A stretch of DNA of 64,000 nt from Candidatus Bathyarchaeota archaeon (GCA_018396535.1 JAGTQC010000004.1:32001-96000); one strand, 5' to 3'; numbered from the stretch's first letter, positions 20,294-32,287 are shown. The notes: a model not told the origin generated them from the letters alone. A program made the numbers and translations.

Positions 20294-21472
20294 TTGCGTA
20301 TAATTATGCTTTCATGGGAGTATCCTCCTAGGATAGTTGGAGGTATATCTAGACATGTCTACTTCCTTAGTAGAGCTCTAGCTTCAGAAGGATGTGAAGT
20401 CCACGTCGTGACACTCGACTTCCCAGGTAAGTCTATCTACGAGGTGGAGGATGGTGTACATGTACATAGGGTTCCCGTAGAGATAGGAGCGTCAAATTTC
20501 CATATGTGGGTAGCTCTATTCAACCATTTCTTCGAGAAGCGTATAGGGTATATAACTCATAATTTCGGTAAACCTGATGTAGTGCATAGTCATGACTGGC
20601 TTACCGCTCTATCTGGTATATCTGCTAAGCATATGCTTAGAATACCGCTCGTAGTAACCTTCCATAGTACTGAGAGGGGTAGATCACAAGGATTAGCAAA
20701 CCCAGAATCTTATATGGTAGACTCTATAGAATGGTGGGCATCCTATGAGGCTTCGATCGTTATAACGGTAAGTAGTCATATGAAAGATGAGCTTATCCGC
20801 TACTTTAAGCTTCCAGAGGATAAGGTATACGTCATCCATAATGGAGTTGATCCATCAATCTTCAATATAAGCGTAGATAGAGATTCTATACGTGGCAGGC
20901 TAGGTGTCAAACCCTGGGAGAAGCTTATAGTATCTGTTGGGAGGATGAGCCATCAGAAGGGCTTCCATATACTACTGCAAGCTATGAGTATCGTAATTCA
21001 CAGGTATAGGGATGTTAAGCTTATCCTAGTAGGTGACGGGTATATGAGGGGGGAGCTTGAAAGGCAAGCTTCAGATCTAGGTTTATCTGAGCATGTAGTA
21101 TTCACAGGATTTATAGACGATGTCTATCTTAAAGCTATACTAAAATCTGCAGATATCATGGTTGTATGCTCACTATACGAGCCGTTCGGTATAGTTGCCT
21201 TAGAAGGTATGGCTTCAGGTCTACCTGTAATAGTCTCAGCTACAGGTGGGTTGAAGGAGATAGTTGAGCATGAAGTAGATGGTTTATGGGCTAGCCCTGG
21301 GGATCCTGCCAGTTTAGCTTCATGTATTGAGAGACTACTGGTAGATGCTGATCTAGTATCGAAACTCCGATTTAACGCTATAGTAAAAGCTAAAAGGTTT
21401 GATTGGAGAAATATAGCTAAGAAGGTGCTCGAAGCTTATGGGGATGCTGGAAGGAGAGCAAGGTTTCAGTAG
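20294..21472 (+). CDS. GT4 glycosyltransferase (glycogen synthase-like)
   Basis: WEYPPRIVGG, HSHDW, HSTE.GR, GR...QKG, SLYEPFGIVALE. Confidence 0.9.
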   Translation: MRIIMLSWEYPPRIVGGISRHVYFLSRALASEGCEVHVVTLDFPGKSIYEVEDGVHVHRVPVEIGASNFHMWVALFNHFFEKRIGYITHNFGKPDVVHSHDWLTALSGISAKHMLRIPLVVTFHSTERGRSQGLANPESYMVDSIEWWASYEASIVITVSSHMKDELIRYFKLPEDKVYVIHNGVDPSIFNISVDRDSIRGRLGVKPWEKLIVSVGRMSHQKGFHILLQAMSIVIHRYRDVKLILVGDGYMRGELERQASDLGLSEHVVFTGFIDDVYLKAILKSADIMVVCSLYEPFGIVALEGMASGLPVIVSATGGLKEIVEHEVDGLWASPGDPASLASCIERLLVDADLVSKLRFNAIVKAKRFDWRNIAKKVLEAYGDAGRRARFQ

Positions 21473-22730: not shown

Positions 22731-25070
22731 GTGAAAGATATGGGTGAAGCTAGCGTCATACCATCAAAGACTTCTATGATAGCTACACTCCTACTAATAC
22801 TAGCATCTAGCTTACCACAGTTATCAGCTCAAACAGTAAATTACACCTTCGTATACGGCTATGTACTAGACGAGAATGGATCAGGCTTATCTAGTGTTAG
22901 AATCCTAGTATCAGCTCAGGATGGATCGGTAAAAACCCTATCATATACAAATAGTGATGGATACTTTGGGCTACTATTAGAGAGGGGTTATACGTATACG
23001 TTAACCTTCTCTAAGCCCGGCTACGTTACCGTTACTAGGAGTATAAATGCTCAGAAGTTCGATATGAATATAGGTAATATTACTTTACGGGAGGCTATAA
23101 GGGTTACATCCATGACAGCGACCATAGCTTCTACAGCGGGATCAGATATATCGATACCAGTTACTATATCTAATGAAGGTGAGGTAGCAGAGCTTTTAAC
23201 ACTTAGCGTAGAGAAGCCTGAGGAGTGGGGTGTTAGGATAGTCTATCAGAATAGGGAGGTTTTGAGTATAGTTTTATCTAAGGGGCAGAGTATATCGATG
23301 GATGTTATACTCTCCATACCTAAGGATGCTCTTGAAGGCTTGTACAAACTAACAATTATAGTTAATGGAACGCTTATGCTTCGTAAAGTGTTCTATATCT
23401 ATGTCCAGCCTCAACCTACAGTAAGGATATATGGCTCCGTATTAGATGATGATGGATCCGCTTTAGGTAATGTTAAGATAGATGTATACTCTCAGGATGG
23501 TATTCTTATAGGATGTTTCGAATCTCTTACCGATGGATCCTTCTATTTAGTATTACCTTCCGTATCTAAGAGTATGTCGTTAACCTTCTCCAAGCCTGGC
23601 TACGTTAAACTATCTAAGGTGGTATCCATATCTAGTGGTGAACTCGATCTCGGTGCGTTAACTCTTCGTAAAGCTATAAAGCTTCGATCACAGATGGTGT
23701 CGCTATCTACTGATCCAGGTAGGAAGATACAGTTACCATTAACTATAAGCAACCTGGCTGATGAAGCGAAGATGGTGGAGTTATCAGTGGATAAACCTGC
23801 ATCATGGCTTACACGTATATTGCTGCAAAACCAGGAGGTTTCTAAGATTCTACTACAACCTAACGAAGCAGTTAATCTACAATTAGAGATTTTTATACCT
23901 ATAGATTCTCGTGGACAGTATACTTTAACCTTGAAAGCTTCATCTGATATAGTATCAGCAATAGAGTTTATGGTATACGTTAATCCTCTAACATCTACGA
24001 TACTGTACTGTCCTATACCTGGTAGAACGGCTATACCAGGTGATACCGTTAGATTTCAAGTTAAAGTTAGGAATCCTGTGGAACTAGATCAAAGATTTAA
24101 GGTATCCGTAGAGCCTACGATTATTGGATGGGTTGTATCCGTTAAAACTCTAGATGGTACCCCTGTATCTGAGGTAACCCTACCGAGTGCTGGATCGTTA
24201 GATCTCATAGTAGATATCTCTATACCATCTACAGTTAGCGATGGTGTATATAAGCTAACTCTTAAAGCAGATTCGGGTATCCTATCGGATGAGATAGATT
24301 TAAGGATAGATGTAAAGAGGGCGCCTCCATACATTAAGCTTGTAGCTGCACCGCCATACATAGACGTATACTCTGGATCCGATGCACGTTTTAAGATATT
24401 AGTCCAGAATATGGGTGGCTATGATGAGCTACTAGATCTGTTTGTCGAAGGTATACCAGGAGGTTGGAGATATAGATTCGAAGATTCAGGTAGACAAGAG
24501 ATAACCAAGCTTTATGTAGAAGCAGGTAGATCCAAGGAATTCTATTTAGTAGTATCAGTTCCATCAGCTTCGTCTCTAGGAACTGTGGATCTAACGGTGT
24601 ATGCTAAGAGTAGCGATGTATCTGATAGGATCGATCTAAAACTAAACATCCTAGGCTTATATAAGCTATCGATAATTACTCAGAACTTCTATACATCACT
24701 AACTGTCGGAGGAGAGACAACCTTCACCCTAACCGTTAAGAATACGGGTAGCCGGGATACTACTAATGTAAAACTCCTATACTCCAGTATTCCTAGCGGC
24801 TTCAATATAGATGTATCTCCTACGAGCTTAAGTGTATTAAGGGTAGGTGAGGAAGCCTCCTTCACTATACGTATCTCGACGACGCCCGATATTAACGCTG
24901 GAAACTACTACATAGATTTCACATTATCTTCAGATCAGGTTCCCCCATCACAGTTTACGCTTAGGGTGGAGTTATTCCATGAAACTAGTTGGCTTCTCTA
25001 CGGAGGTATAGCTATAGTTTTAGCGTTAACAAGCCTGTTCCTCATGTATAGGAGGATCGGTAGGAGGTGA
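22731..25070 (+). CDS. Secreted, C-terminally anchored protein with carboxypeptidase-regulatory-like and NEW3/Ig-like repeats
   Basis: Signal peptide, two GxVLD..G..L..V.I...FSKPGY modules, repeated N.G...L.V..P..W beta-sandwiches, C-terminal TM plus RRIGRR. Confidence 0.8.
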   Translation: MKDMGEASVIPSKTSMIATLLLILASSLPQLSAQTVNYTFVYGYVLDENGSGLSSVRILVSAQDGSVKTLSYTNSDGYFGLLLERGYTYTLTFSKPGYVTVTRSINAQKFDMNIGNITLREAIRVTSMTATIASTAGSDISIPVTISNEGEVAELLTLSVEKPEEWGVRIVYQNREVLSIVLSKGQSISMDVILSIPKDALEGLYKLTIIVNGTLMLRKVFYIYVQPQPTVRIYGSVLDDDGSALGNVKIDVYSQDGILIGCFESLTDGSFYLVLPSVSKSMSLTFSKPGYVKLSKVVSISSGELDLGALTLRKAIKLRSQMVSLSTDPGRKIQLPLTISNLADEAKMVELSVDKPASWLTRILLQNQEVSKILLQPNEAVNLQLEIFIPIDSRGQYTLTLKASSDIVSAIEFMVYVNPLTSTILYCPIPGRTAIPGDTVRFQVKVRNPVELDQRFKVSVEPTIIGWVVSVKTLDGTPVSEVTLPSAGSLDLIVDISIPSTVSDGVYKLTLKADSGILSDEIDLRIDVKRAPPYIKLVAAPPYIDVYSGSDARFKILVQNMGGYDELLDLFVEGIPGGWRYRFEDSGRQEITKLYVEAGRSKEFYLVVSVPSASSLGTVDLTVYAKSSDVSDRIDLKLNILGLYKLSIITQNFYTSLTVGGETTFTLTVKNTGSRDTTNVKLLYSSIPSGFNIDVSPTSLSVLRVGEEASFTIRISTTPDINAGNYYIDFTLSSDQVPPSQFTLRVELFHETSWLLYGGIAIVLALTSLFLMYRRIGRR
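22999..23607 (+). repeat. Intragenic direct repeat marking a domain duplication
   Basis: CGTTAACCTTCTCTAAGCCCGGCTACGTTA (22999-23028) vs CGTTAACCTTCTCCAAGCCTGGCTACGTTA (23578-23607), 28/30 identical. Confidence 0.85.
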
Positions 25071-26032
25071 CCTCTATACCTGAATATGTTATCGAAACAT
25101 ATGGATTAACTAAAGTTTATAGATCTGGCGGCGGCGCGGTCGTAGCTGTAGATAAGCTTGATTTCACCGTTGAGAAATCATCTATATTCGGTCTACTAGG
25201 ACCTAATGGTGCAGGTAAAACTACGCTTTTGATGATGCTAACAGGCTTAACCCTCCCCACAAATGGTTCCGGTAGGGTTCTAGGATACGATATAGTTAGG
25301 GAATCTCGTGAGATACGTAGGAGGGTTGGTTTTCTACCTGAAGGTTTCGGTTTCTACGAGCATCTCACAGCTGAACAGAATCTAGAGTATATAGCTGCTT
25401 TGAACGATATACCTAAGCCTGAGAGGAGGAAACGTATCGAAGATATCCTATCTCTAGTAGGTTTATACGAGGTTAAAAATAGGAGGGTTTCAAGTTTCTC
25501 TAGAGGTATGAAGCAGAGGCTTGGTATAGCTCAAGCGTTAATTAAAGATCCAGAGCTACTCCTACTAGATGAGCCTACCGCTGGTTTAGATCCAGAGGGG
25601 TCTAGAGCATTTAAAGATCTCGTATTGAAGCTGAATAGCGAGGGTAGGACTATAGTTCTAAGTACGCATCTACTATTCGAAGTTGGGCCCCTCTGTAGTT
25701 CTATCGCTATAATGAACCGCGGTAGGATTGTCGTTCAGGGTAGGGTTAAAGATCTGATATCCAAGCTTATGAGCGAGGTAGGCTACAAGATATACGTAGA
25801 GGTTCGAGGTGATTTAGGGAAGCTTGCTTCAGCTCTAACCGGTATGGAGGGGGTGAGGGGTGTGAGGATAGGTGTAGATAGCCTCTATGTGGATTCTACG
25901 AGGGATATCAGGGTGGATATAGTTAAGATCGCTTCAGATATGAAGGTTGAGATATCGAGTATAAGAGTTGAAGAACCGTCTCTGGAGGATCTATTCATAA
26001 GATATTATAGGGGTGAGGCTTCCAATGCCTAG
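25067..26032 (+). CDS. ABC transporter ATP-binding protein (ABC-2 type)
   Basis: GPNGAGKTT, FSRGMKQR, LLDEPTAGLDP, STH, PSLEDLF. Confidence 0.93.
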   Translation: MTSIPEYVIETYGLTKVYRSGGGAVVAVDKLDFTVEKSSIFGLLGPNGAGKTTLLMMLTGLTLPTNGSGRVLGYDIVRESREIRRRVGFLPEGFGFYEHLTAEQNLEYIAALNDIPKPERRKRIEDILSLVGLYEVKNRRVSSFSRGMKQRLGIAQALIKDPELLLLDEPTAGLDPEGSRAFKDLVLKLNSEGRTIVLSTHLLFEVGPLCSSIAIMNRGRIVVQGRVKDLISKLMSEVGYKIYVEVRGDLGKLASALTGMEGVRGVRIGVDSLYVDSTRDIRVDIVKIASDMKVEISSIRVEEPSLEDLFIRYYRGEASNA

Positions 26033-26975
26033 CGTGTATACTGTCGCATCTAGAGAATTCTCTGATATAATACATAGTAAACGCTTCATAATACTCGTAG
26101 CTGTATTCTCGATTGTATTCATGGTCGGTATGGCTTCGATATACCTTACAGTCCTCTCCATGGCTCAGGGTCTCGGTATAGCTATGCCTACAGGGTTCCT
26201 AGGTAGAGCTGCATCGATAATAGCATCATCCATGTCCTACTTCGCTCCGATAGTAGGTATAGCTTTAGGATGCGATGCTATATCCGGGGAAAGGGAGAAG
26301 GGTACTCTGAAGACGATCCTAGCTCAACCCATATATAGAGATACATTTATAACTGGGAAATTCATAGCGGCAATCTTAGCTGTATCTATAGCAGTCTCCA
26401 TAGCATCCCTGGTTAATGTAGGAGGATCCATAGTAATCCTAGGTGTGACACCTACAAGCGAGGATATAGCTAGGCTAGCTCTATTCATAGTATTCTCGAT
26501 ACTATACGCTATAAGCTACTATGGTATAGCTATACTATTATCCACTATAGCGAGGAGGACTACTCAGAGTGTGATAGTAAGCGTAACGCTATGGGCTATA
26601 TTCACATTCGCTATACCTATAATCGCCTCTCTCGTAGCATACATGTATAGGCCAATAACTGGTATAGAAATAATACAGCGTCCAGGTGGGAATGTAACTA
26701 TTAGAAGACCTAGCCCTGAGGAGATGCAGCGTATAATAGAGCAGACAAGGGCTAGAGCTACTATAACGGAAGCTATAAATAGTATAACGCCAAACTACCA
26801 TTTCACGAAGATAATTCAGTACATTCTCGGCTTTATGCAGGGTGGGCTTAATCAATCGTTATCCATATATCAAGGTCTAGTATCAGCGTGGCCTAATATA
26901 CTGGTACTAGTGTTGGTAGCCTGTATAACGTTGATAGCATCGTACATGGTGTTTATAAGGCAGGAGGCAAGGTAG
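26025..26975 (+). CDS. ABC-2/NosY-like permease
   Basis: VA.REF, DAISGEREKGTL...L.QPI.R...I.GKF, multiple TM helices; ATG 26025 preceded by GGGGTGAGG. Confidence 0.9.
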   Translation: MPSVYTVASREFSDIIHSKRFIILVAVFSIVFMVGMASIYLTVLSMAQGLGIAMPTGFLGRAASIIASSMSYFAPIVGIALGCDAISGEREKGTLKTILAQPIYRDTFITGKFIAAILAVSIAVSIASLVNVGGSIVILGVTPTSEDIARLALFIVFSILYAISYYGIAILLSTIARRTTQSVIVSVTLWAIFTFAIPIIASLVAYMYRPITGIEIIQRPGGNVTIRRPSPEEMQRIIEQTRARATITEAINSITPNYHFTKIIQYILGFMQGGLNQSLSIYQGLVSAWPNILVLVLVACITLIASYMVFIRQEAR

Positions 26976-27021: not shown

Positions 27022-28266
27022 TTATTTCTTGATAAGCTTTTCATAGATTTCAATAGTTTTCTCAGCTATCCTATCCCATGTAAACTCCTCTAGAACTCTT
27101 CTTCTACCGTTTCTACCCAGCTTCTCCGCCAGCTTAGGATCATCTAATAGTATGTTAATACCCCAAGCTATATCCTCAGGTCTTCTAGGATCTACATGTA
27201 TACCGGTCTGGTTTTCGCCTGACGGTACGACTATCTCCCTCATACCGCTTATACCTGCCGCACCTACTACTACTGGTTTAGCCATAGACATAGCTTCTAG
27301 AGAAACTATACCGAAGGGTTCGTAGAGACTTGGGAAGACGCATATATCTGACATAGCGTAATGAAGTATACGCTCATCCTCGCTTAGGAAGTCAAATCTC
27401 AAGATAACTTTATCCTCGAGATTTAGGGTTTTCGTAAGGTTGACGAGGTAGTCTCTAAGCTCTCCTAGACCTACTACGATAAGCTTAGCTTCGGGATGCT
27501 TCGCTGCTATGTATGACATAGCCTGTATGAGCTTATCGACACCTTTAACCGCTGTAAGCCTACCTATAAATAGTATAATCTTTTCATCTTCCTTGACACC
27601 GTATCTTTCTCTAAGCTTGTAGACCTCCCCTCTATCTATCTTGCTAGGATCATACTTATCAGGGTCTACGCCATTATATACTACCTCTACCTTACTTATG
27701 GGAAATCCAAGCGTCTCTAATTCTGATTTCATAGCATATGATACCGTTACTATTTTATCAGCCCCATCAGCCCCCTTTCTTTCAAGCTCCATAACGGTCA
27801 TAGATCCATTTCCTAGAGTTCTACCTCTCTCAGTACTATGTATATGGAAAGCCATAGGTATTCCTAAATGCTTCTTAACGAGTAGCCCAGCTATCACTGA
27901 AAGCCAATCGTGAACCGATACTATATCAAACTTGTAGCCTTCGAATCGGTGTAGATCGTTTACTAGCTTGGAGGCTGATAGAAGATTGTACAGGTATATA
28001 TCTGAGAAGAATTTGAATCCTGGACCCCAATTCTTAAGTTCTGATGCTACTATATCGAACATTATACTCGTTATATCCATAAGTAGTGGTCTATGAACCT
28101 CTACTCCTCCTATAAGCTCTCTAGTCTTAAGATTTCCATCGTTTAACGTGAATACGTAGACGTTATGTCCCATCTTAACGTATCTACGAGTAACTTCATA
28201 CGAGTATACACCGAGTCCTCCGACTATTCTAGGTGGGTACTCCCATGTGAAGAACGCTATATCCAT
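27022..28266 (-). CDS. GT4 glycosyltransferase (glycogen synthase-like), paralogue of 20294-21472
   Basis: WEYPPRIVGGLG, HDWL, HSTERGR, GRL..VKG, PSLYEPFGIVSLEAM. Confidence 0.9.
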   Translation of the reverse strand: MDIAFFTWEYPPRIVGGLGVYSYEVTRRYVKMGHNVYVFTLNDGNLKTRELIGGVEVHRPLLMDITSIMFDIVASELKNWGPGFKFFSDIYLYNLLSASKLVNDLHRFEGYKFDIVSVHDWLSVIAGLLVKKHLGIPMAFHIHSTERGRTLGNGSMTVMELERKGADGADKIVTVSYAMKSELETLGFPISKVEVVYNGVDPDKYDPSKIDRGEVYKLRERYGVKEDEKIILFIGRLTAVKGVDKLIQAMSYIAAKHPEAKLIVVGLGELRDYLVNLTKTLNLEDKVILRFDFLSEDERILHYAMSDICVFPSLYEPFGIVSLEAMSMAKPVVVGAAGISGMREIVVPSGENQTGIHVDPRRPEDIAWGINILLDDPKLAEKLGRNGRRRVLEEFTWDRIAEKTIEIYEKLIKK

Positions 28267-28425
28267 AGCTTCTAAGGCTAATAGCTACTCCTATATAAAA
28301 TAATCTTAGAGTTCTAGCTTAAGATTAAACTTAACTCCTCTATATCCTGATGAAGCATATGGCTGTATACTATTCGCTTCGACTTGCGAAACTTACAGAT
28401 ATACTTTCCCTATCCGCTATACATA

Positions 28426-28445
28426 TCTAATATTTAAATATTAGA
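28426..28445. promoter_or_regulatory. Perfect 20-bp palindrome centred on the TATA box upstream of the YkgJ/ATP-grasp operon
   Basis: TCTAATATTTAAATATTAGA is its own reverse complement, about 30 bp before ATG 28476; second inverted repeat AAAACC-ATA-GGTTTT at 28452-28466. Confidence 0.6.
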
Positions 28446-28475
28446 AAGGTAAAAACCATAGGTTTTCTACTTAGA

Positions 28476-29117
28476 ATGACGTTATCGCATTTATCTAGCT
28501 ATTTAACGCATAGGACATGCATCCTATGTGCATCTCTAGGTTTAGGATGCTGTAATCGATGTCAACCATTCATACTGTATGCTGATATTAAGCGTATGGT
28601 TGCCCATATAGATTCAAGGATTGTTAAAGAGTTGATCGAGTGTAGCATGATACCTGAAGCTTATCGTGATCATTTGGAGAATCCTGAGATGAGGATGGTA
28701 TACTATCAATGGGGTGGGTCATGGTATAGGATTCAGATGAGGTTTTCGAATGGCTCATGTATAGCCCTTAAACATGGCCTTGGCTGTATGCTTAATAGAT
28801 ATAGGCCCCTGATATGCGTAGTATGGCCGTTTTGGTGGAGTGAAGACTCAAATCCGTTAGGTAATGATTTTGAGATAGAAGTTATCGGTGAATGTACCAT
28901 GGCTATACGTTGGATGTTTACACCTGAGAGAATAATGTTCGAGCTTGATATGGATGAAGCAGAGTTGAAGAAGTATCTGAGGAGTATGTATATTGCGTTG
29001 AGGGAGCATGAGTCTATACTTAGGGAAGCCTATAGTAAAGGTGTGGAGCCATCTATGCTTCTAGAATGGCTTATAACTAAGGCTGTATCCAGCTATCCTA
29101 TGGAGGAGTATCTTTGA
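28476..29117 (+). CDS. YkgJ/CxxCxxCC family cysteine-cluster protein
   Basis: CILCASLGLGCC ... GSCIAL...GC....RPLIC..WPF ... C; stop overlaps the next TTG start (TTGA). Confidence 0.8.
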   Translation: MTLSHLSSYLTHRTCILCASLGLGCCNRCQPFILYADIKRMVAHIDSRIVKELIECSMIPEAYRDHLENPEMRMVYYQWGGSWYRIQMRFSNGSCIALKHGLGCMLNRYRPLICVVWPFWWSEDSNPLGNDFEIEVIGECTMAIRWMFTPERIMFELDMDEAELKKYLRSMYIALREHESILREAYSKGVEPSMLLEWLITKAVSSYPMEEYL

Positions 29118-30115
29118 GTATGAAGGTCGCTATACTATATAATGCACCAGCTGGTAAGCCTGATAGTATCGAATATCTATCTGAAGCAGGGGTGCTAGAG
29201 GAAGTTGAAGCTGTTAGACTAGCTCTAGAGAGGCTTGATTTAAAGTACGATATTATCCCACTTAGAGATGATATAATCGAGTTTGCTAGAGCTGTTAAAA
29301 ACTGTAATCCTGATGTAGCTGTAAATCTATGTGAGGGAGCCTTCGGTTATAGTATGTATGAGATGAATGTAGCAGCACTCCTAGAGCTTCTAGGGGTTCC
29401 GTATACTGGGGCAGATCCTTTAACCTTGGCTTTAGCTAGGGATAAGGGGTTATCCAAGGATATATTTAGAGCTAAGGGTATACCTACACCAGAGTATAGG
29501 GTTTTGAACAGTATCTTGGATTGGGATTCTAAACTGAGTTTCCCACTTATAGTTAAACCTGTAGCTGAGGATGCTAGTATCGGTTTAACGCGTAGAAATT
29601 TTGTTAGATGCTTCGATGAGCTTAAAGATATCGTCGAGTATATAGTCGTAAGGTATGGTCAGCCAGCGTTGGTTGAGGAGTATATCGCGGGTAGAGAGCT
29701 TAACGTAGCGTTCATAGGAGGTGAAGAACCTGTGATGCTACCTATCTCTGAGATCGTATTCGAGTTCGAAGAGGAGCCTAGGATAGTAGACTATTATGCT
29801 AAATGGGTTAAAGGTAGCTATGAGTATGAGAGGACTAGGCCTCTATGTCCAGCACCTCTTGATGAAGGGGTAAGGGTTAGAGTGGAGGATGCTGCTAGAA
29901 GGGCCTATAAAGCTTTAAAGTGTAGGGATTATGGTCGTGTAGATATAAGGCTTAGAGGTATGGTGCCATATGTTCTAGAAGTTAATCCAAACCCGGATAT
30001 ATCGCTAGATTCAGGTTTCGTTAGGAGTTTGAATGCTGCTGGTATACGTTATGAGGATTTCATAGCTAGGATAATATCCTATGCCTTAGATAGGTCTAGG
30101 AAGTTTAACAAGTGA
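29114..30115 (+). CDS. D-Ala-D-Ala-ligase-like ATP-grasp amide ligase (EVNPNP type)
   Basis: NLCEG, PYTG, DK, IVKP..EDASIG, EEYI.GRE, YYAKW, RVDIR, LEVNPNP. Confidence 0.88.
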   Translation: MSMKVAILYNAPAGKPDSIEYLSEAGVLEEVEAVRLALERLDLKYDIIPLRDDIIEFARAVKNCNPDVAVNLCEGAFGYSMYEMNVAALLELLGVPYTGADPLTLALARDKGLSKDIFRAKGIPTPEYRVLNSILDWDSKLSFPLIVKPVAEDASIGLTRRNFVRCFDELKDIVEYIVVRYGQPALVEEYIAGRELNVAFIGGEEPVMLPISEIVFEFEEEPRIVDYYAKWVKGSYEYERTRPLCPAPLDEGVRVRVEDAARRAYKALKCRDYGRVDIRLRGMVPYVLEVNPNPDISLDSGFVRSLNAAGIRYEDFIARIISYALDRSRKFNK

Positions 30116-31144
30116 TCTATTATCTAGCTTATCCTCCATGCCATACCTTTCTAGAGCGTACCAGAGGATGGTGCATATTAGCTCGTCGTAGCTATATCCG
30201 GCTGCTCTAGCAGCTGTAGGTAGGGCTGAGTGTGCATCTGGATTCGGTATCAATCCTGGTAGAGGGTTGACTTCCATTATGCGTGGTTCACCGTATCTAT
30301 CTAGCCTGACGTCTATACGGCATAGATCTCTGCATCCTAGGACTCTAAACGTTTTGAGAGCTATATCTTTAAGCTTGGATTCTAAGCTTAACGGTATATC
30401 TGCCGGGCATCGTAGTATATCTAGCGGATTGTTCGGTGTATCCCAAAGCCATTTAGCTTCGTAGGAGTATATGGGGCTAGCTTCCCTCGGTAATTTATCG
30501 AGTAGAATCTCTACTATCGGTAGTACGACTGGACTCCTATTACCTAGGATTCCTATAGTGAATTCTCTACCAGGTAGGAATTCCTCGACTATAGCGGGTT
30601 GTTTATAAGTCGATATAACCCATGAAACCTGTTTTCTAAGAGCCTCCGCATCCCTGACGAGAGATGTGCTTCTAATACCTTTGCTCGACCCCTCTCTTAG
30701 AGGTTTAACTATGAGTGGAAATTCCAGATAGTCTTCGAGCTTCTCTTCAACTGATTCAAACACCTGGAATTTAGGTGATGGCAGCCCATACGATGATAAT
30801 ACCTGGTGGGTTAGAGCTTTATCCAGACATATAGCTAGGGTAGCGGGGCCAGATCCGGTATATGGTATACCCAGCATCTCGAGTATGGAAGGTATATGCG
30901 ATTCTCTACTCTCACCTCTTAGCCCCTCAGCTATATTGAACACTATATCTGGTTTCTCGCTTCTAAGCCGTAGGTAGGAATCCTCATCGGCTTCGATCTT
31001 CACGACACTACATCCACTCTTCTCTAGAGCTTTAGCTATAGCTTCTACAGTTTCCTCTTCATCATATTCTACATAGTAGTCTTCTGGTAGATCTGATGCG
31101 GCAGGTCTTCTTAGATTATACGTTATACATACCTTCAGCGGCAT
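30086..31144 (-). CDS. D-Ala-D-Ala-ligase-like ATP-grasp amide ligase (EVNPLPG type)
   Basis: FNIAEG..G.SRES, PYTGS, LDK, IVKP..EGSSKG, EEFLPGREFT, YEAKW, RIDVR, EVNPLPGL. Confidence 0.88.
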   Translation of the reverse strand: MPLKVCITYNLRRPAASDLPEDYYVEYDEEETVEAIAKALEKSGCSVVKIEADEDSYLRLRSEKPDIVFNIAEGLRGESRESHIPSILEMLGIPYTGSGPATLAICLDKALTHQVLSSYGLPSPKFQVFESVEEKLEDYLEFPLIVKPLREGSSKGIRSTSLVRDAEALRKQVSWVISTYKQPAIVEEFLPGREFTIGILGNRSPVVLPIVEILLDKLPREASPIYSYEAKWLWDTPNNPLDILRCPADIPLSLESKLKDIALKTFRVLGCRDLCRIDVRLDRYGEPRIMEVNPLPGLIPNPDAHSALPTAARAAGYSYDELICTILWYALERYGMEDKLDNRSLVKLPRPI

Positions 31145-31171
31145 AGCTCTTCTAATAGCCTCCCTTTAAGT

Positions 31172-32287
31172 CTAGGGAGGCGTAGCGTAGGCTATAGCCT
31201 CCTCCTCTATGGGAGGCTGCGGATACACGTATATATTGCCTTCATAGTTCCTGAGGATCACCTTATCCTTATCGAATGCTACTATATAGTTTGGTTGAAT
31301 CGGTATTTTACCCCCGCCGCCCGGAGCATCTATAACGTATCTAGGTATAGCTAAACCAGATGTATAGCCTATAAGCGATTCGAGTATCTTTATACCCGTC
31401 TCTACTCTGGTTCTGAAGTGGGATGCCCCCTTAACTAGATCCATCTGGAATAGGTAGTATGGCCTAACACGTATCTTTAATAGTTTATGTAGGAGTTCCT
31501 TCATAACCTTGGGGTCGTCGTTGACCCCCTTCAATAGTACGGATTGATTACCTAGTGGTATACCCGCATCTGCTAGTAATCCGCATGCTCTTTCACTCTC
31601 CTCCGTTATCTCTCTAGGATGATTGAAGTGTACGTTAACATATAGTGGATGATATTTCTTCAATATACTGCATAGCTTAGGGGTTATCCTTTGCGGTAGT
31701 GTACAGGGCATTCTAGATCCTATTCTTACAATCTCCACATGCTGTATAGCTCTAACCTTACCTAATATGCGATCTAGAGTCTCATCTGGAAGCATGAATG
31801 GATCTCCACCGGAGAGTAGTACATCTCTTATAGATGGGTTACCCTTGATATACTCTATCTGTTTAGCCCATTCATCCATAGACAACCTCGCAGGGGATCT
31901 TCCCACCATCCTCTTCCTAGTACAGAATCTACAGTATGTAGCGCATACGGTTGATACACACATAAGAACTCTATCAGGGTATCTATGAACTAAACCTGGT
32001 ACGGGGCTATCTCCCTCTTCATCTAGCGGATCCTCAATTCCGTACGGGTCTTTAAGTTCTAGTGGGCTAGGTATACACTGCATCCATATGGGATCGCCAA
32101 CCTCCTCTATGAGGTTGAAGTAGTATCTAGAAACTCTCATAGGATATACGGATACAACGGCTTTGAGAGGTTCTATATCGATCCTAAATTTCTCCGTTAT
32201 CTGCTCTGGTTTAGTGATAAGGTCTTTAAGAAGGGTTCTCCAATCCTCTTCTACCACTCCCCTCTCCAGCCCTCCCTCTAAAACCAA
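31172..32287 (-). CDS. kamA: KamA family radical SAM/PLP lysine 2,3-aminomutase
   Basis: HRYPDRVL, CATYCRFCTR (CxxxCxxC), LLSGGDP, HFNHPRE, NQSVLLKGVND, YLFQMDL, VIDAPGGGGKIP (PLP Lys). Confidence 0.92.
   Translation of the reverse strand: MVLEGGLERGVVEEDWRTLLKDLITKPEQITEKFRIDIEPLKAVVSVYPMRVSRYYFNLIEEVGDPIWMQCIPSPLELKDPYGIEDPLDEEGDSPVPGLVHRYPDRVLMCVSTVCATYCRFCTRKRMVGRSPARLSMDEWAKQIEYIKGNPSIRDVLLSGGDPFMLPDETLDRILGKVRAIQHVEIVRIGSRMPCTLPQRITPKLCSILKKYHPLYVNVHFNHPREITEESERACGLLADAGIPLGNQSVLLKGVNDDPKVMKELLHKLLKIRVRPYYLFQMDLVKGASHFRTRVETGIKILESLIGYTSGLAIPRYVIDAPGGGGKIPIQPNYIVAFDKDKVILRNYEGNIYVYPQPPIEEEAIAYATPP

Follow-up and report, generated by a model that had tools for sequence, protein, structure and literature searches.

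What would an archaeon make with a lysine aminomutase encoded next to two relatives of D-alanine--D-alanine ligase (Ddl)? To our knowledge, archaea are without murein, and the known fates of beta-lysine are few, namely, N-acetyl-beta-lysine, the modification of EF-P, lysine fermentation, and some antibiotics. The question is raised by a locus at positions 28476 to 32287 of a 64,000-nucleotide stretch of DNA (the window) from Candidatus Bathyarchaeota archaeon (GCA_018396535.1, JAGTQC010000004.1:32001-96000). The source is a Bathyarchaeia metagenome-assembled genome of 1.41 Mb that is 93% complete. An earlier note, made from the sequence alone, had described four open reading frames (ORFs) in two coupled pairs, one encoding a Cys-rich protein and an ATP-grasp ligase (Cys213 and LigA) and the other a KamA-type aminomutase and a second ligase (KamA and LigB), and had proposed that they make beta-lysine and ligate it. 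All four ORFs were found at their coordinates, and the two pairs converge at the 3' ends of the ligase genes. KamA and the ligases belong to a cassette present in archaea and bacteria, which probably turns lysine into beta-lysine that the ligases then join into a small amide compound.

The aminomutase and the two ligases

KamA (31172-32287, minus strand, 371 amino acids [aa]) is a short form of the radical S-adenosylmethionine (SAM)/pyridoxal phosphate (PLP) aminomutases. In NCBIfam searches, it scored 300.4 bits on the KamA family model TIGR00238 (cut-off, 199.2), and its best model was AblA, with 494.5 bits against an equivalog cut-off of 525.4. The scores on the other aminomutase models were 438 bits for glutamate and 344 bits for arginine, both under their cut-offs, and 253 bits for EpmB. 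The lysine 2,3-aminomutase of Clostridium subterminale (2A5H) was matched at an E value of 4.5e-126. According to the alignment with this enzyme, and in its numbering, KamA keeps the CxxxCxxC motif, the PLP lysine K337, and the lysine-binding residues D293 and D330, within the motifs CATYCRFC, GGGGK, QMDL, and VIDAP. In 2A5H, D293 and D330 hold the epsilon-amine of lysine, and KamA has equivalents of both. The Zn site is missing: C268 is replaced by proline, and the chain stops at residue 371 without the C-terminal Cys triad. The assignment of KamA to the KamA family in the earlier note was thus borne out, with all the residues expected of a lysine 2,3-aminomutase in place, and KamA is predicted to be such an enzyme, supplying beta-lysine.

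LigA (29114-30115, plus strand, 333 aa) and LigB (30086-31144, minus strand, 352 aa) are ATP-grasp ligases of the Ddl fold. Both matched the Pfam family Dala_Dala_lig_C (1.7e-30 for LigA and 3e-37 for LigB), and in Pfam and NCBIfam they matched Ddl-type models only, below all Ddl cut-offs. On the best Ddl model, NF002378 (cut-off, 243), LigA scored 156.1 bits and LigB 208.8 bits; on TIGR01205 (cut-off, 245.65), the scores were 140.9 and 169.5 bits. The AlphaFold models had pLDDT values of 92.2 for LigA and 92.6 for LigB. The best structural matches of the LigB model were Ddl enzymes (TM score, 0.73 to 0.85; about 30% identity), and no other characterized ligase was found among the best matches listed.

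The earlier note had stated that both ligases are without the Ddl hallmarks, and all the substitutions that it quoted are present in the translations. The Ddl motif HG..GEDG is replaced by NLCEG in one ligase and by NIAEG..GESRES in the other, AKY is replaced by AKW, and EVNT.PG is replaced by EVNPNP and EVNPLPG in the two proteins. These substitutions are invariant throughout the two families, as seen when 64 LigA-type and 76 LigB-type proteins were aligned with Escherichia coli DdlB and with the true Ddl sequences of the same bacteria. The equivalents of K97, K144, E180, K215, R255, D257, E270, and N272 are invariant in both families. The substrate positions of Ddl are altered across both, H63 to an invariant Glu and Y216 to an invariant Trp, and the segment around E15 could not be aligned, being replaced by an acidic insert, which in LigB includes the invariant residues D22, E26, D28, and T32. 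LigB also has a four-residue insertion ahead of the S281 equivalent. The pocket of LigA differs from that of LigB (EDAS versus EGSS and NPNPD versus NPLPG, plus G301/R304). The many invariant acidic residues would fit a polycationic substrate. As judged from their residues, both ligases look catalytically competent but not like Ddl.

LigA and LigB are 35 to 36% identical. The comparison with bona fide Ddl that the earlier note had proposed was made with a maximum-likelihood tree (quick search, SH-aLRT support). LigA and LigB fell into two clades, both of them outside true Ddl and both divided into an archaeal and a bacterial subclade, in agreement with the claim that they are distinct subtypes and not a recent duplicate. 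Since the clades are separate and each has archaeal and bacterial members, the pair is old and its two members have traveled together. The LigA clade evolves faster than that of LigB, whose orthologs share 65 to 87% identity across Bathyarchaeia and 50 to 56% in bacteria.

Linkage and distribution

The lack of a conserved linkage to kamA had been named in the earlier note as an outcome that would refute the proposal. The results showed that the linkage of the ligases to kamA is very strongly conserved. In a sample of 251 evenly drawn Thermoproteota genomes, with thresholds of E 1e-160 or better for LigB and E 1e-185 or better for KamA, orthologs of KamA (at least 71% identity) and LigB (at least 66% identity) were found in the identical 15 genomes and were adjacent in all 15. 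LigA was present in 12 of these. The cassette was defined by a short KamA adjoining an LigB ortholog with an LigA ortholog nearby, the arrangement found in the window.

A wider set of 80 loci came from a scan of one genome per species, and its gene content was read by tblastn and ORF clustering (G and L numbers below are our handles for genomes and loci). With a single exception, these loci had KamA, LigA, or both next to LigB. The archaeal loci belong to Bathyarchaeia, Nezhaarchaeota, Thaumarchaeota, and Woesearchaeota, and the bacterial ones to Ignavibacteriota, Bacteroidota, Chlorobiota, Desulfuromonadales and other Deltaproteobacteria, Nitrospinota, Omnitrophota, Aminicenantota, and Bacillota, so that the linkage extends across two domains and the trio spans at least eight bacterial phyla. 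The order and strand of the genes vary by lineage, and the convergent arrangement of the ligase genes seen here recurs in most Bathyarchaeia and Nezhaarchaeota loci. Cultured carriers include Rosettibacter primus 4148-Me (L082).

The members of the cassette can also be separated. In one relative (G003), KamA and LigB are on one contig, and LigA is on another together with a gene for a GNAT acetyltransferase, which suggests that the cassette consists of two modules, KamA plus LigB and LigA plus GNAT. In five Deltaproteobacteria, the ligase pair had no KamA next to it, and a KamA ortholog was found elsewhere in all five genomes. In four of these five, kamA is preceded by a gene for a MerR-type helix-turn-helix protein of 84 to 91 aa (L107:6930-7184 and L108:6798-7067, plus strand; L109:8366-8641 and L105:8331-8588, minus strand).

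Fused forms were also found. In Myxococcota, tandem double ligases with a length of about 700 aa adjoin KamA (P0188, from the cultured Citreicoccus inhibens; L143, 2433-4466). In two high-GC loci of Myxococcota/Deltaproteobacteria (L145 and L146), ORFs that seemed to fuse KamA with LigB and LigA with GNAT were rejected as artifacts of longest-ORF calling; their parts lie in different frames, and Pfam found one domain in each. Paralogs outside the cassette are fused to other domains in Thermoproteota. In complete genomes of other Thermoproteota, one family (f5) joins a Ddl-like ATP-grasp domain to a C-terminal M20 peptidase domain in proteins of 725 to 738 aa (L110:5670-7886 and L111:6159-8336, both minus strand). 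A gamma-glutamyltranspeptidase gene lies next to it (L110:4049-5710, minus strand), and the two could form a pair resembling a peptide cycle; we know of no characterization of such a pair. Three further families of Thermoproteota have a Ddl-like ligase with a class I SAM methyltransferase as its N-terminal fusion partner (640 to 664 aa; L112:7272-9209, minus strand; L113:5767-7761 and L114:6405-8327, plus strand). This group is the sister of the LigA clade, and it parallels the methyltransferase gene that often lies 3' of LigA in Deltaproteobacteria.

Partner genes and the layout of the window locus

Cys213 (28476-29117, plus strand, 213 aa) had been taken for a YkgJ protein and for a member of a four-gene unit. 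The first claim held in part. The window protein had no match in Pfam, even at an E value of 10, or in NCBIfam, and an ortholog from another locus (L033) reached 17.8 bits on the YkgJ model PF03692 (gathering cut-off, 23). Its neighbors in the ESM Atlas were clusters of the YkgJ/CxxCxxCC family (PF03692), both by features (0.95) and by structure (TM score, 0.87), so that we describe it as a divergent YkgJ/CxxCxxCC-like protein. The second claim did not hold. Orthologs were found in 5 of the 251 Thermoproteota genomes. They were adjacent to the cassette in 3 of the 15 cassette genomes (G000, G010, and G257), missing in one congener, and present in two genomes (80 to 82% complete) where no cassette was found. 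Cys213 also lies near the cassette, in differing arrangements, in L024, L032, and L033. With 12 of the 15 cassette genomes lacking it, Cys213 is at most a sporadic accessory and not part of the core.

Elsewhere, the usual fourth member is a GNAT acetyltransferase, which the earlier note had not foreseen. In 37 loci, the gene for a small GNAT of about 160 aa separates those of LigA and KamA; a different GNAT is encoded just upstream of KamA in most Bathyarchaeia and Nezhaarchaeota, and in Bathyarchaeia it can also adjoin LigA. These proteins are about 160 to 185 aa long, and none of them matched AblB in any search. No GNAT gene was found in the window locus or in the loci of two congeners. A genome-wide tblastn search with cassette GNATs of Bathyarchaeia and Nezhaarchaeota (GNAT-b of L022 and L031) gave best matches of 28 to 32% identity over partial length. 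The window locus is, by its gene content, a GNAT-less, lineage-specific variant of a widespread cassette.

The neighborhoods in related genomes offer hints to the acceptor. A gene for a pyruvoyl arginine decarboxylase lies directly upstream of LigB in 13 Deltaproteobacteria/Thermodesulfobacteriota loci, often preceded by genes for an agmatinase and a deoxyhypusine-synthase-like protein. The last of these is found upstream of the ligases in nine Deltaproteobacteria loci, always with the arginine decarboxylase and often with the agmatinase, as a set for polyamine synthesis. The arginine decarboxylase gene is also part of one Nitrospinota locus, where the genes are ordered differently. These neighborhoods of related genomes hint that the ligases may use agmatine or a polyamine. 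The idea that the cassette replaces spermidine synthase was rejected, as relatives have this enzyme whether or not they carry the cassette.

A GT4 glycosyltransferase gene (27022-28266, minus strand) is divergent from that of Cys213. The family was rejected as a part of the system; it was found in 7 of the 80 loci, roughly the level expected by chance for such a common family. A GT4 gene adjoins the cassette here and in G010, a single Nezhaarchaeales locus has an ortholog about 3 kb away, and in five Deltaproteobacteria loci the ligases are followed by GT4 pairs that are unrelated. The best partial matches of the window protein were glgA_Coryne, MshA, and BshA, none of which reached its cut-off. 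A second GT4 gene (about 20294-21439, plus strand), 7 kb away, encodes a paralog with 36% identity. An ABC-2 exporter pair (25067-26975) adjoins the first GT4 gene, in the same order in G010. According to Pfam and NCBIfam searches, the four-gene locus is bordered by genes for an archaeal-type phosphoenolpyruvate carboxylase and an archaeal S11.

Within the locus, kamA and ligB are separated by a spacer of 27 nucleotides (nt) (31145-31171, minus strand) with a GGGAGG motif resembling a ribosome-binding site about 14 nt 5' of the ATG of LigB, and the two genes are probably cotranscribed. The genes for LigA and LigB overlap tail to tail by 30 bp at their 3' ends (30086-30115), as given by the ORF coordinates and the sequence. 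LigA has two candidate start codons, a TTG at 29114, which overlaps the stop codon of Cys213 (TTGA), and an equally plausible ATG at 29120, 2 nt past this stop; a GGAGG at 29103-29107 could serve either. The intergenic region 5' of the Cys213-LigA pair (28267-28475, plus strand) is AT rich, and a TTTAAATA box within it (about 28433-28440, plus strand), some 36 to 43 nt 5' of the ATG of Cys213, is a candidate archaeal promoter. This candidate comes from reading the sequence; a sigma-70 scan is not applicable to archaea.

A proposed route to a beta-lysine amide and its alternatives

From the gene content, the catalytic residues, the co-inheritance, and the phylogeny described above, we infer the chemical steps and the nature of the acceptor as follows. 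KamA would convert L-lysine into beta-lysine. LigB would activate a carboxylate as an acyl phosphate, presumably by the same mechanism as Ddl, and form a first amide bond involving beta-lysine; LigA, with its different pocket, would carry out a second ligation and add a further unit. In most other lineages, the small GNAT would then acetylate a free amine. The end product would be a small cationic or zwitterionic amide of beta-lysine rather than D-Ala-D-Ala, and it could be a dipeptide, a tripeptide, or a conjugate of beta-lysine with a polyamine. In the simplest version, modeled on Ddl joining two copies of one substrate, LigB would produce beta-lysyl-beta-lysine or beta-lysyl-X. The proposal of the earlier note is supported in part, with the residues of KamA, the non-Ddl character of the ligases, and the linkage to kamA in its favor, and the four-gene unit is not supported.

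The known fates of beta-lysine were searched for in the 93%-complete genome of the window, and the claim that their genes are missing extends from the locus to the whole genome. An AblB-type acetyltransferase (TIGR03827) gave no match at an E value of 0.001. EpmA (TIGR00462) gave subthreshold matches only (at most 84 bits against a cut-off of 286.9) in frames of 436 to 450 aa, which we take to be aminoacyl-tRNA synthetases. No beta-lysine 5,6-aminomutase or Kce (BKACE) was found in this genome; the KamD control matched no control genome, which makes the 5,6-aminomutase result a weak negative. For the cell wall, no alanine racemase family match and no MurC-F set were found, the only hit being a single weak Mur_ligase_M match of 34 bits. 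Because none of these enzymes was found, the known fates of beta-lysine and a role in cell wall synthesis are unlikely here.

A reading in which LigA and LigB are ordinary D-Ala-D-Ala (or D-Ala-D-X) ligases, or neighbors of kamA by chance, has in its favor that Ddl is their sole family match and their best structural match. It is effectively refuted by the comparative data: the ligases are below every Ddl cut-off with the substrate residues replaced, all five Deltaproteobacteria that carry the ligases unlinked from KamA also hold a genuine, separate Ddl (>300 bits), the host has neither an alanine racemase nor a murein ligase set, and KamA is adjacent in all 15 genomes and in two domains. It is also very unlikely that the cassette serves to break down, salvage, or detoxify lysine and beta-lysine, with the ligases and the GNAT tagging intermediates instead of building a functional end product. 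The Bacillus kamA-yodP pathway and clostridial lysine fermentation do begin with the same mutase, and Bathyarchaeia are thought to ferment amino acids; however, the genome has no 5,6-aminomutase (by the weak negative above) or Kce, spending two ATP on ligation would be unusual in an energy-yielding fermentation, and no dehydrogenase, coenzyme A (CoA)-transferase, or aminotransferase is conserved in the cassette.

Two other alternatives concern the substrates. The cassette could modify a protein, with LigB, as a RimK-like enzyme or an analog of EpmA, attaching beta-lysine to a lysine or the C terminus of EF-P/aIF5A or of a ribosomal protein. There is precedent, as relatives of KamA (EpmB) provide beta-lysine for EF-P and the ATP-grasp enzymes RimK, LysX, and TTL modify proteins. 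The deoxyhypusine-synthase-like gene upstream of the ligases in nine loci, a RimI-type GNAT downstream in some loci, and the absence of EpmA among the matches in three of five Deltaproteobacteria carriers point the same way. We nevertheless consider protein modification quite improbable: in sequence and fold, the enzyme nearest to the ligases is Ddl, which acts on small molecules, rather than RimK, LysX, or TTL; the archaeal hosts retain their own deoxyhypusine synthase homolog for aIF5A; the deoxyhypusine-synthase-like gene comes as part of a polyamine synthesis set; and no candidate target gene is conserved beside the cassette. Alternatively, the aminomutase might act on arginine or ornithine, or on a lysine residue within a peptide built by the ligases, giving an amide of beta-arginine or beta-ornithine or a reversed order of steps. 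The AblA cut-off that KamA misses, its 344 bits on the arginine 2,3-aminomutase model, the short form without a Zn/C-terminal module, and an arginine decarboxylase as a conserved neighbor in two phyla would agree with this idea. It is unlikely in view of the higher score on AblA (494 bits, against 344 for arginine and 438 for glutamate, all under their cut-offs) and of the retention of both lysine-binding Asp residues, with which other basic substrates stay compatible.

Several observations weigh against the synthesis of a beta-lysine amide by sequential ligation, the reading that we favor. KamA narrowly misses the AblA cut-off (494.5 versus 525.4 bits) and its Zn site is gone; because of this, its substrate or stereochemistry could differ. 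KamA and LigB occur without LigA in three genomes (G005, G007, and G243) and in five Nitrospinota loci, so that two sequential ligations are not universal. In the tree, the two halves of the Myxococcota double ligases are both placed on the side of LigB, and therefore these fusions do not demonstrate a partnership between LigA and LigB. Since the genus of the window is without the GNAT, it may make something other than the canonical product. Finally, two of the five Deltaproteobacteria (G017 and G020, carrying L102 and L100) have EpmA (366 to 371 bits) and a single KamA family gene, and in them one mutase may serve both EF-P modification and the ligases.

Among characterized systems, AblA/AblB, which makes the solute N-epsilon-acetyl-beta-lysine in methanogens and has a counterpart in the kamA-yodP genes of Bacillus, resembles the cassette in starting with a KamA-type mutase and, for most relatives of the cassette, in having a GNAT in the gene set. 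The cassette differs from it by the two added ATP-grasp ligases, the short mutase without Zn, and GNATs unlike AblB. Ddl/VanA shares its fold with LigB and its ATP-grasp catalytic residues with both ligases; in contrast, the cassette ligases score below the cut-offs, form separate clades, coexist with true Ddl, and are present in archaea without murein genes. In EpmB/EpmA, a KamA family mutase likewise feeds beta-lysine to an ATP-dependent ligase, but EpmA is a paralog of class II aminoacyl-tRNA synthetases, whereas the cassette ligases are ATP-grasp enzymes, and KamA scores 253 bits on EpmB versus 494 on AblA. In the PylB/PylC pair, a radical SAM lysine mutase outside the KamA family feeds a Ddl-like ATP-grasp ligase, which forms an amide with a second amine. 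In the synthesis of N-acetylglutaminylglutamine amide (Ngg), a GNAT and an ATP-grasp enzyme yield an N-acetylated dipeptide osmolyte. The likeness of these two systems to the cassette is one of design only, and the Pfam, NCBIfam, and PDB searches with the two ligases gave no match to PylC or Ngg.

A full-text literature search found no paper on this gene set. New here are the GNAT-less, YkgJ-linked variant, the co-occurrence in 15 of 15 genomes, the two-module split, the counts of polyamine gene neighborhoods, and the fused paralogs of other Thermoproteota. A predicted beta-lysine synthase is tied to two dedicated Ddl paralogs outside cell wall synthesis in hundreds of uncultured and a few cultured species of both prokaryotic domains. 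This tie, together with the conservation within Bathyarchaeia (65 to 87% identity), points to a common, so far undescribed metabolite. More tentatively, the product might be a polycationic amide based on beta-lysine, for example, beta-lysyl-beta-lysine or beta-lysyl-agmatine, -putrescine, or -homospermidine, and represent a new and widespread class of primary metabolites. Its charge could be tuned by acetylation or methylation, and it could act like a polyamine or as a thermo- or osmoprotectant in anaerobic archaea and bacteria, with its synthesis wired to the arginine decarboxylase, the agmatinase, and the deoxyhypusine-synthase-like enzyme in Deltaproteobacteria/Nitrospinota. The assignment of the cassette would give a function to a large share of the archaeal proteins now annotated as "D-alanine--D-alanine ligase."

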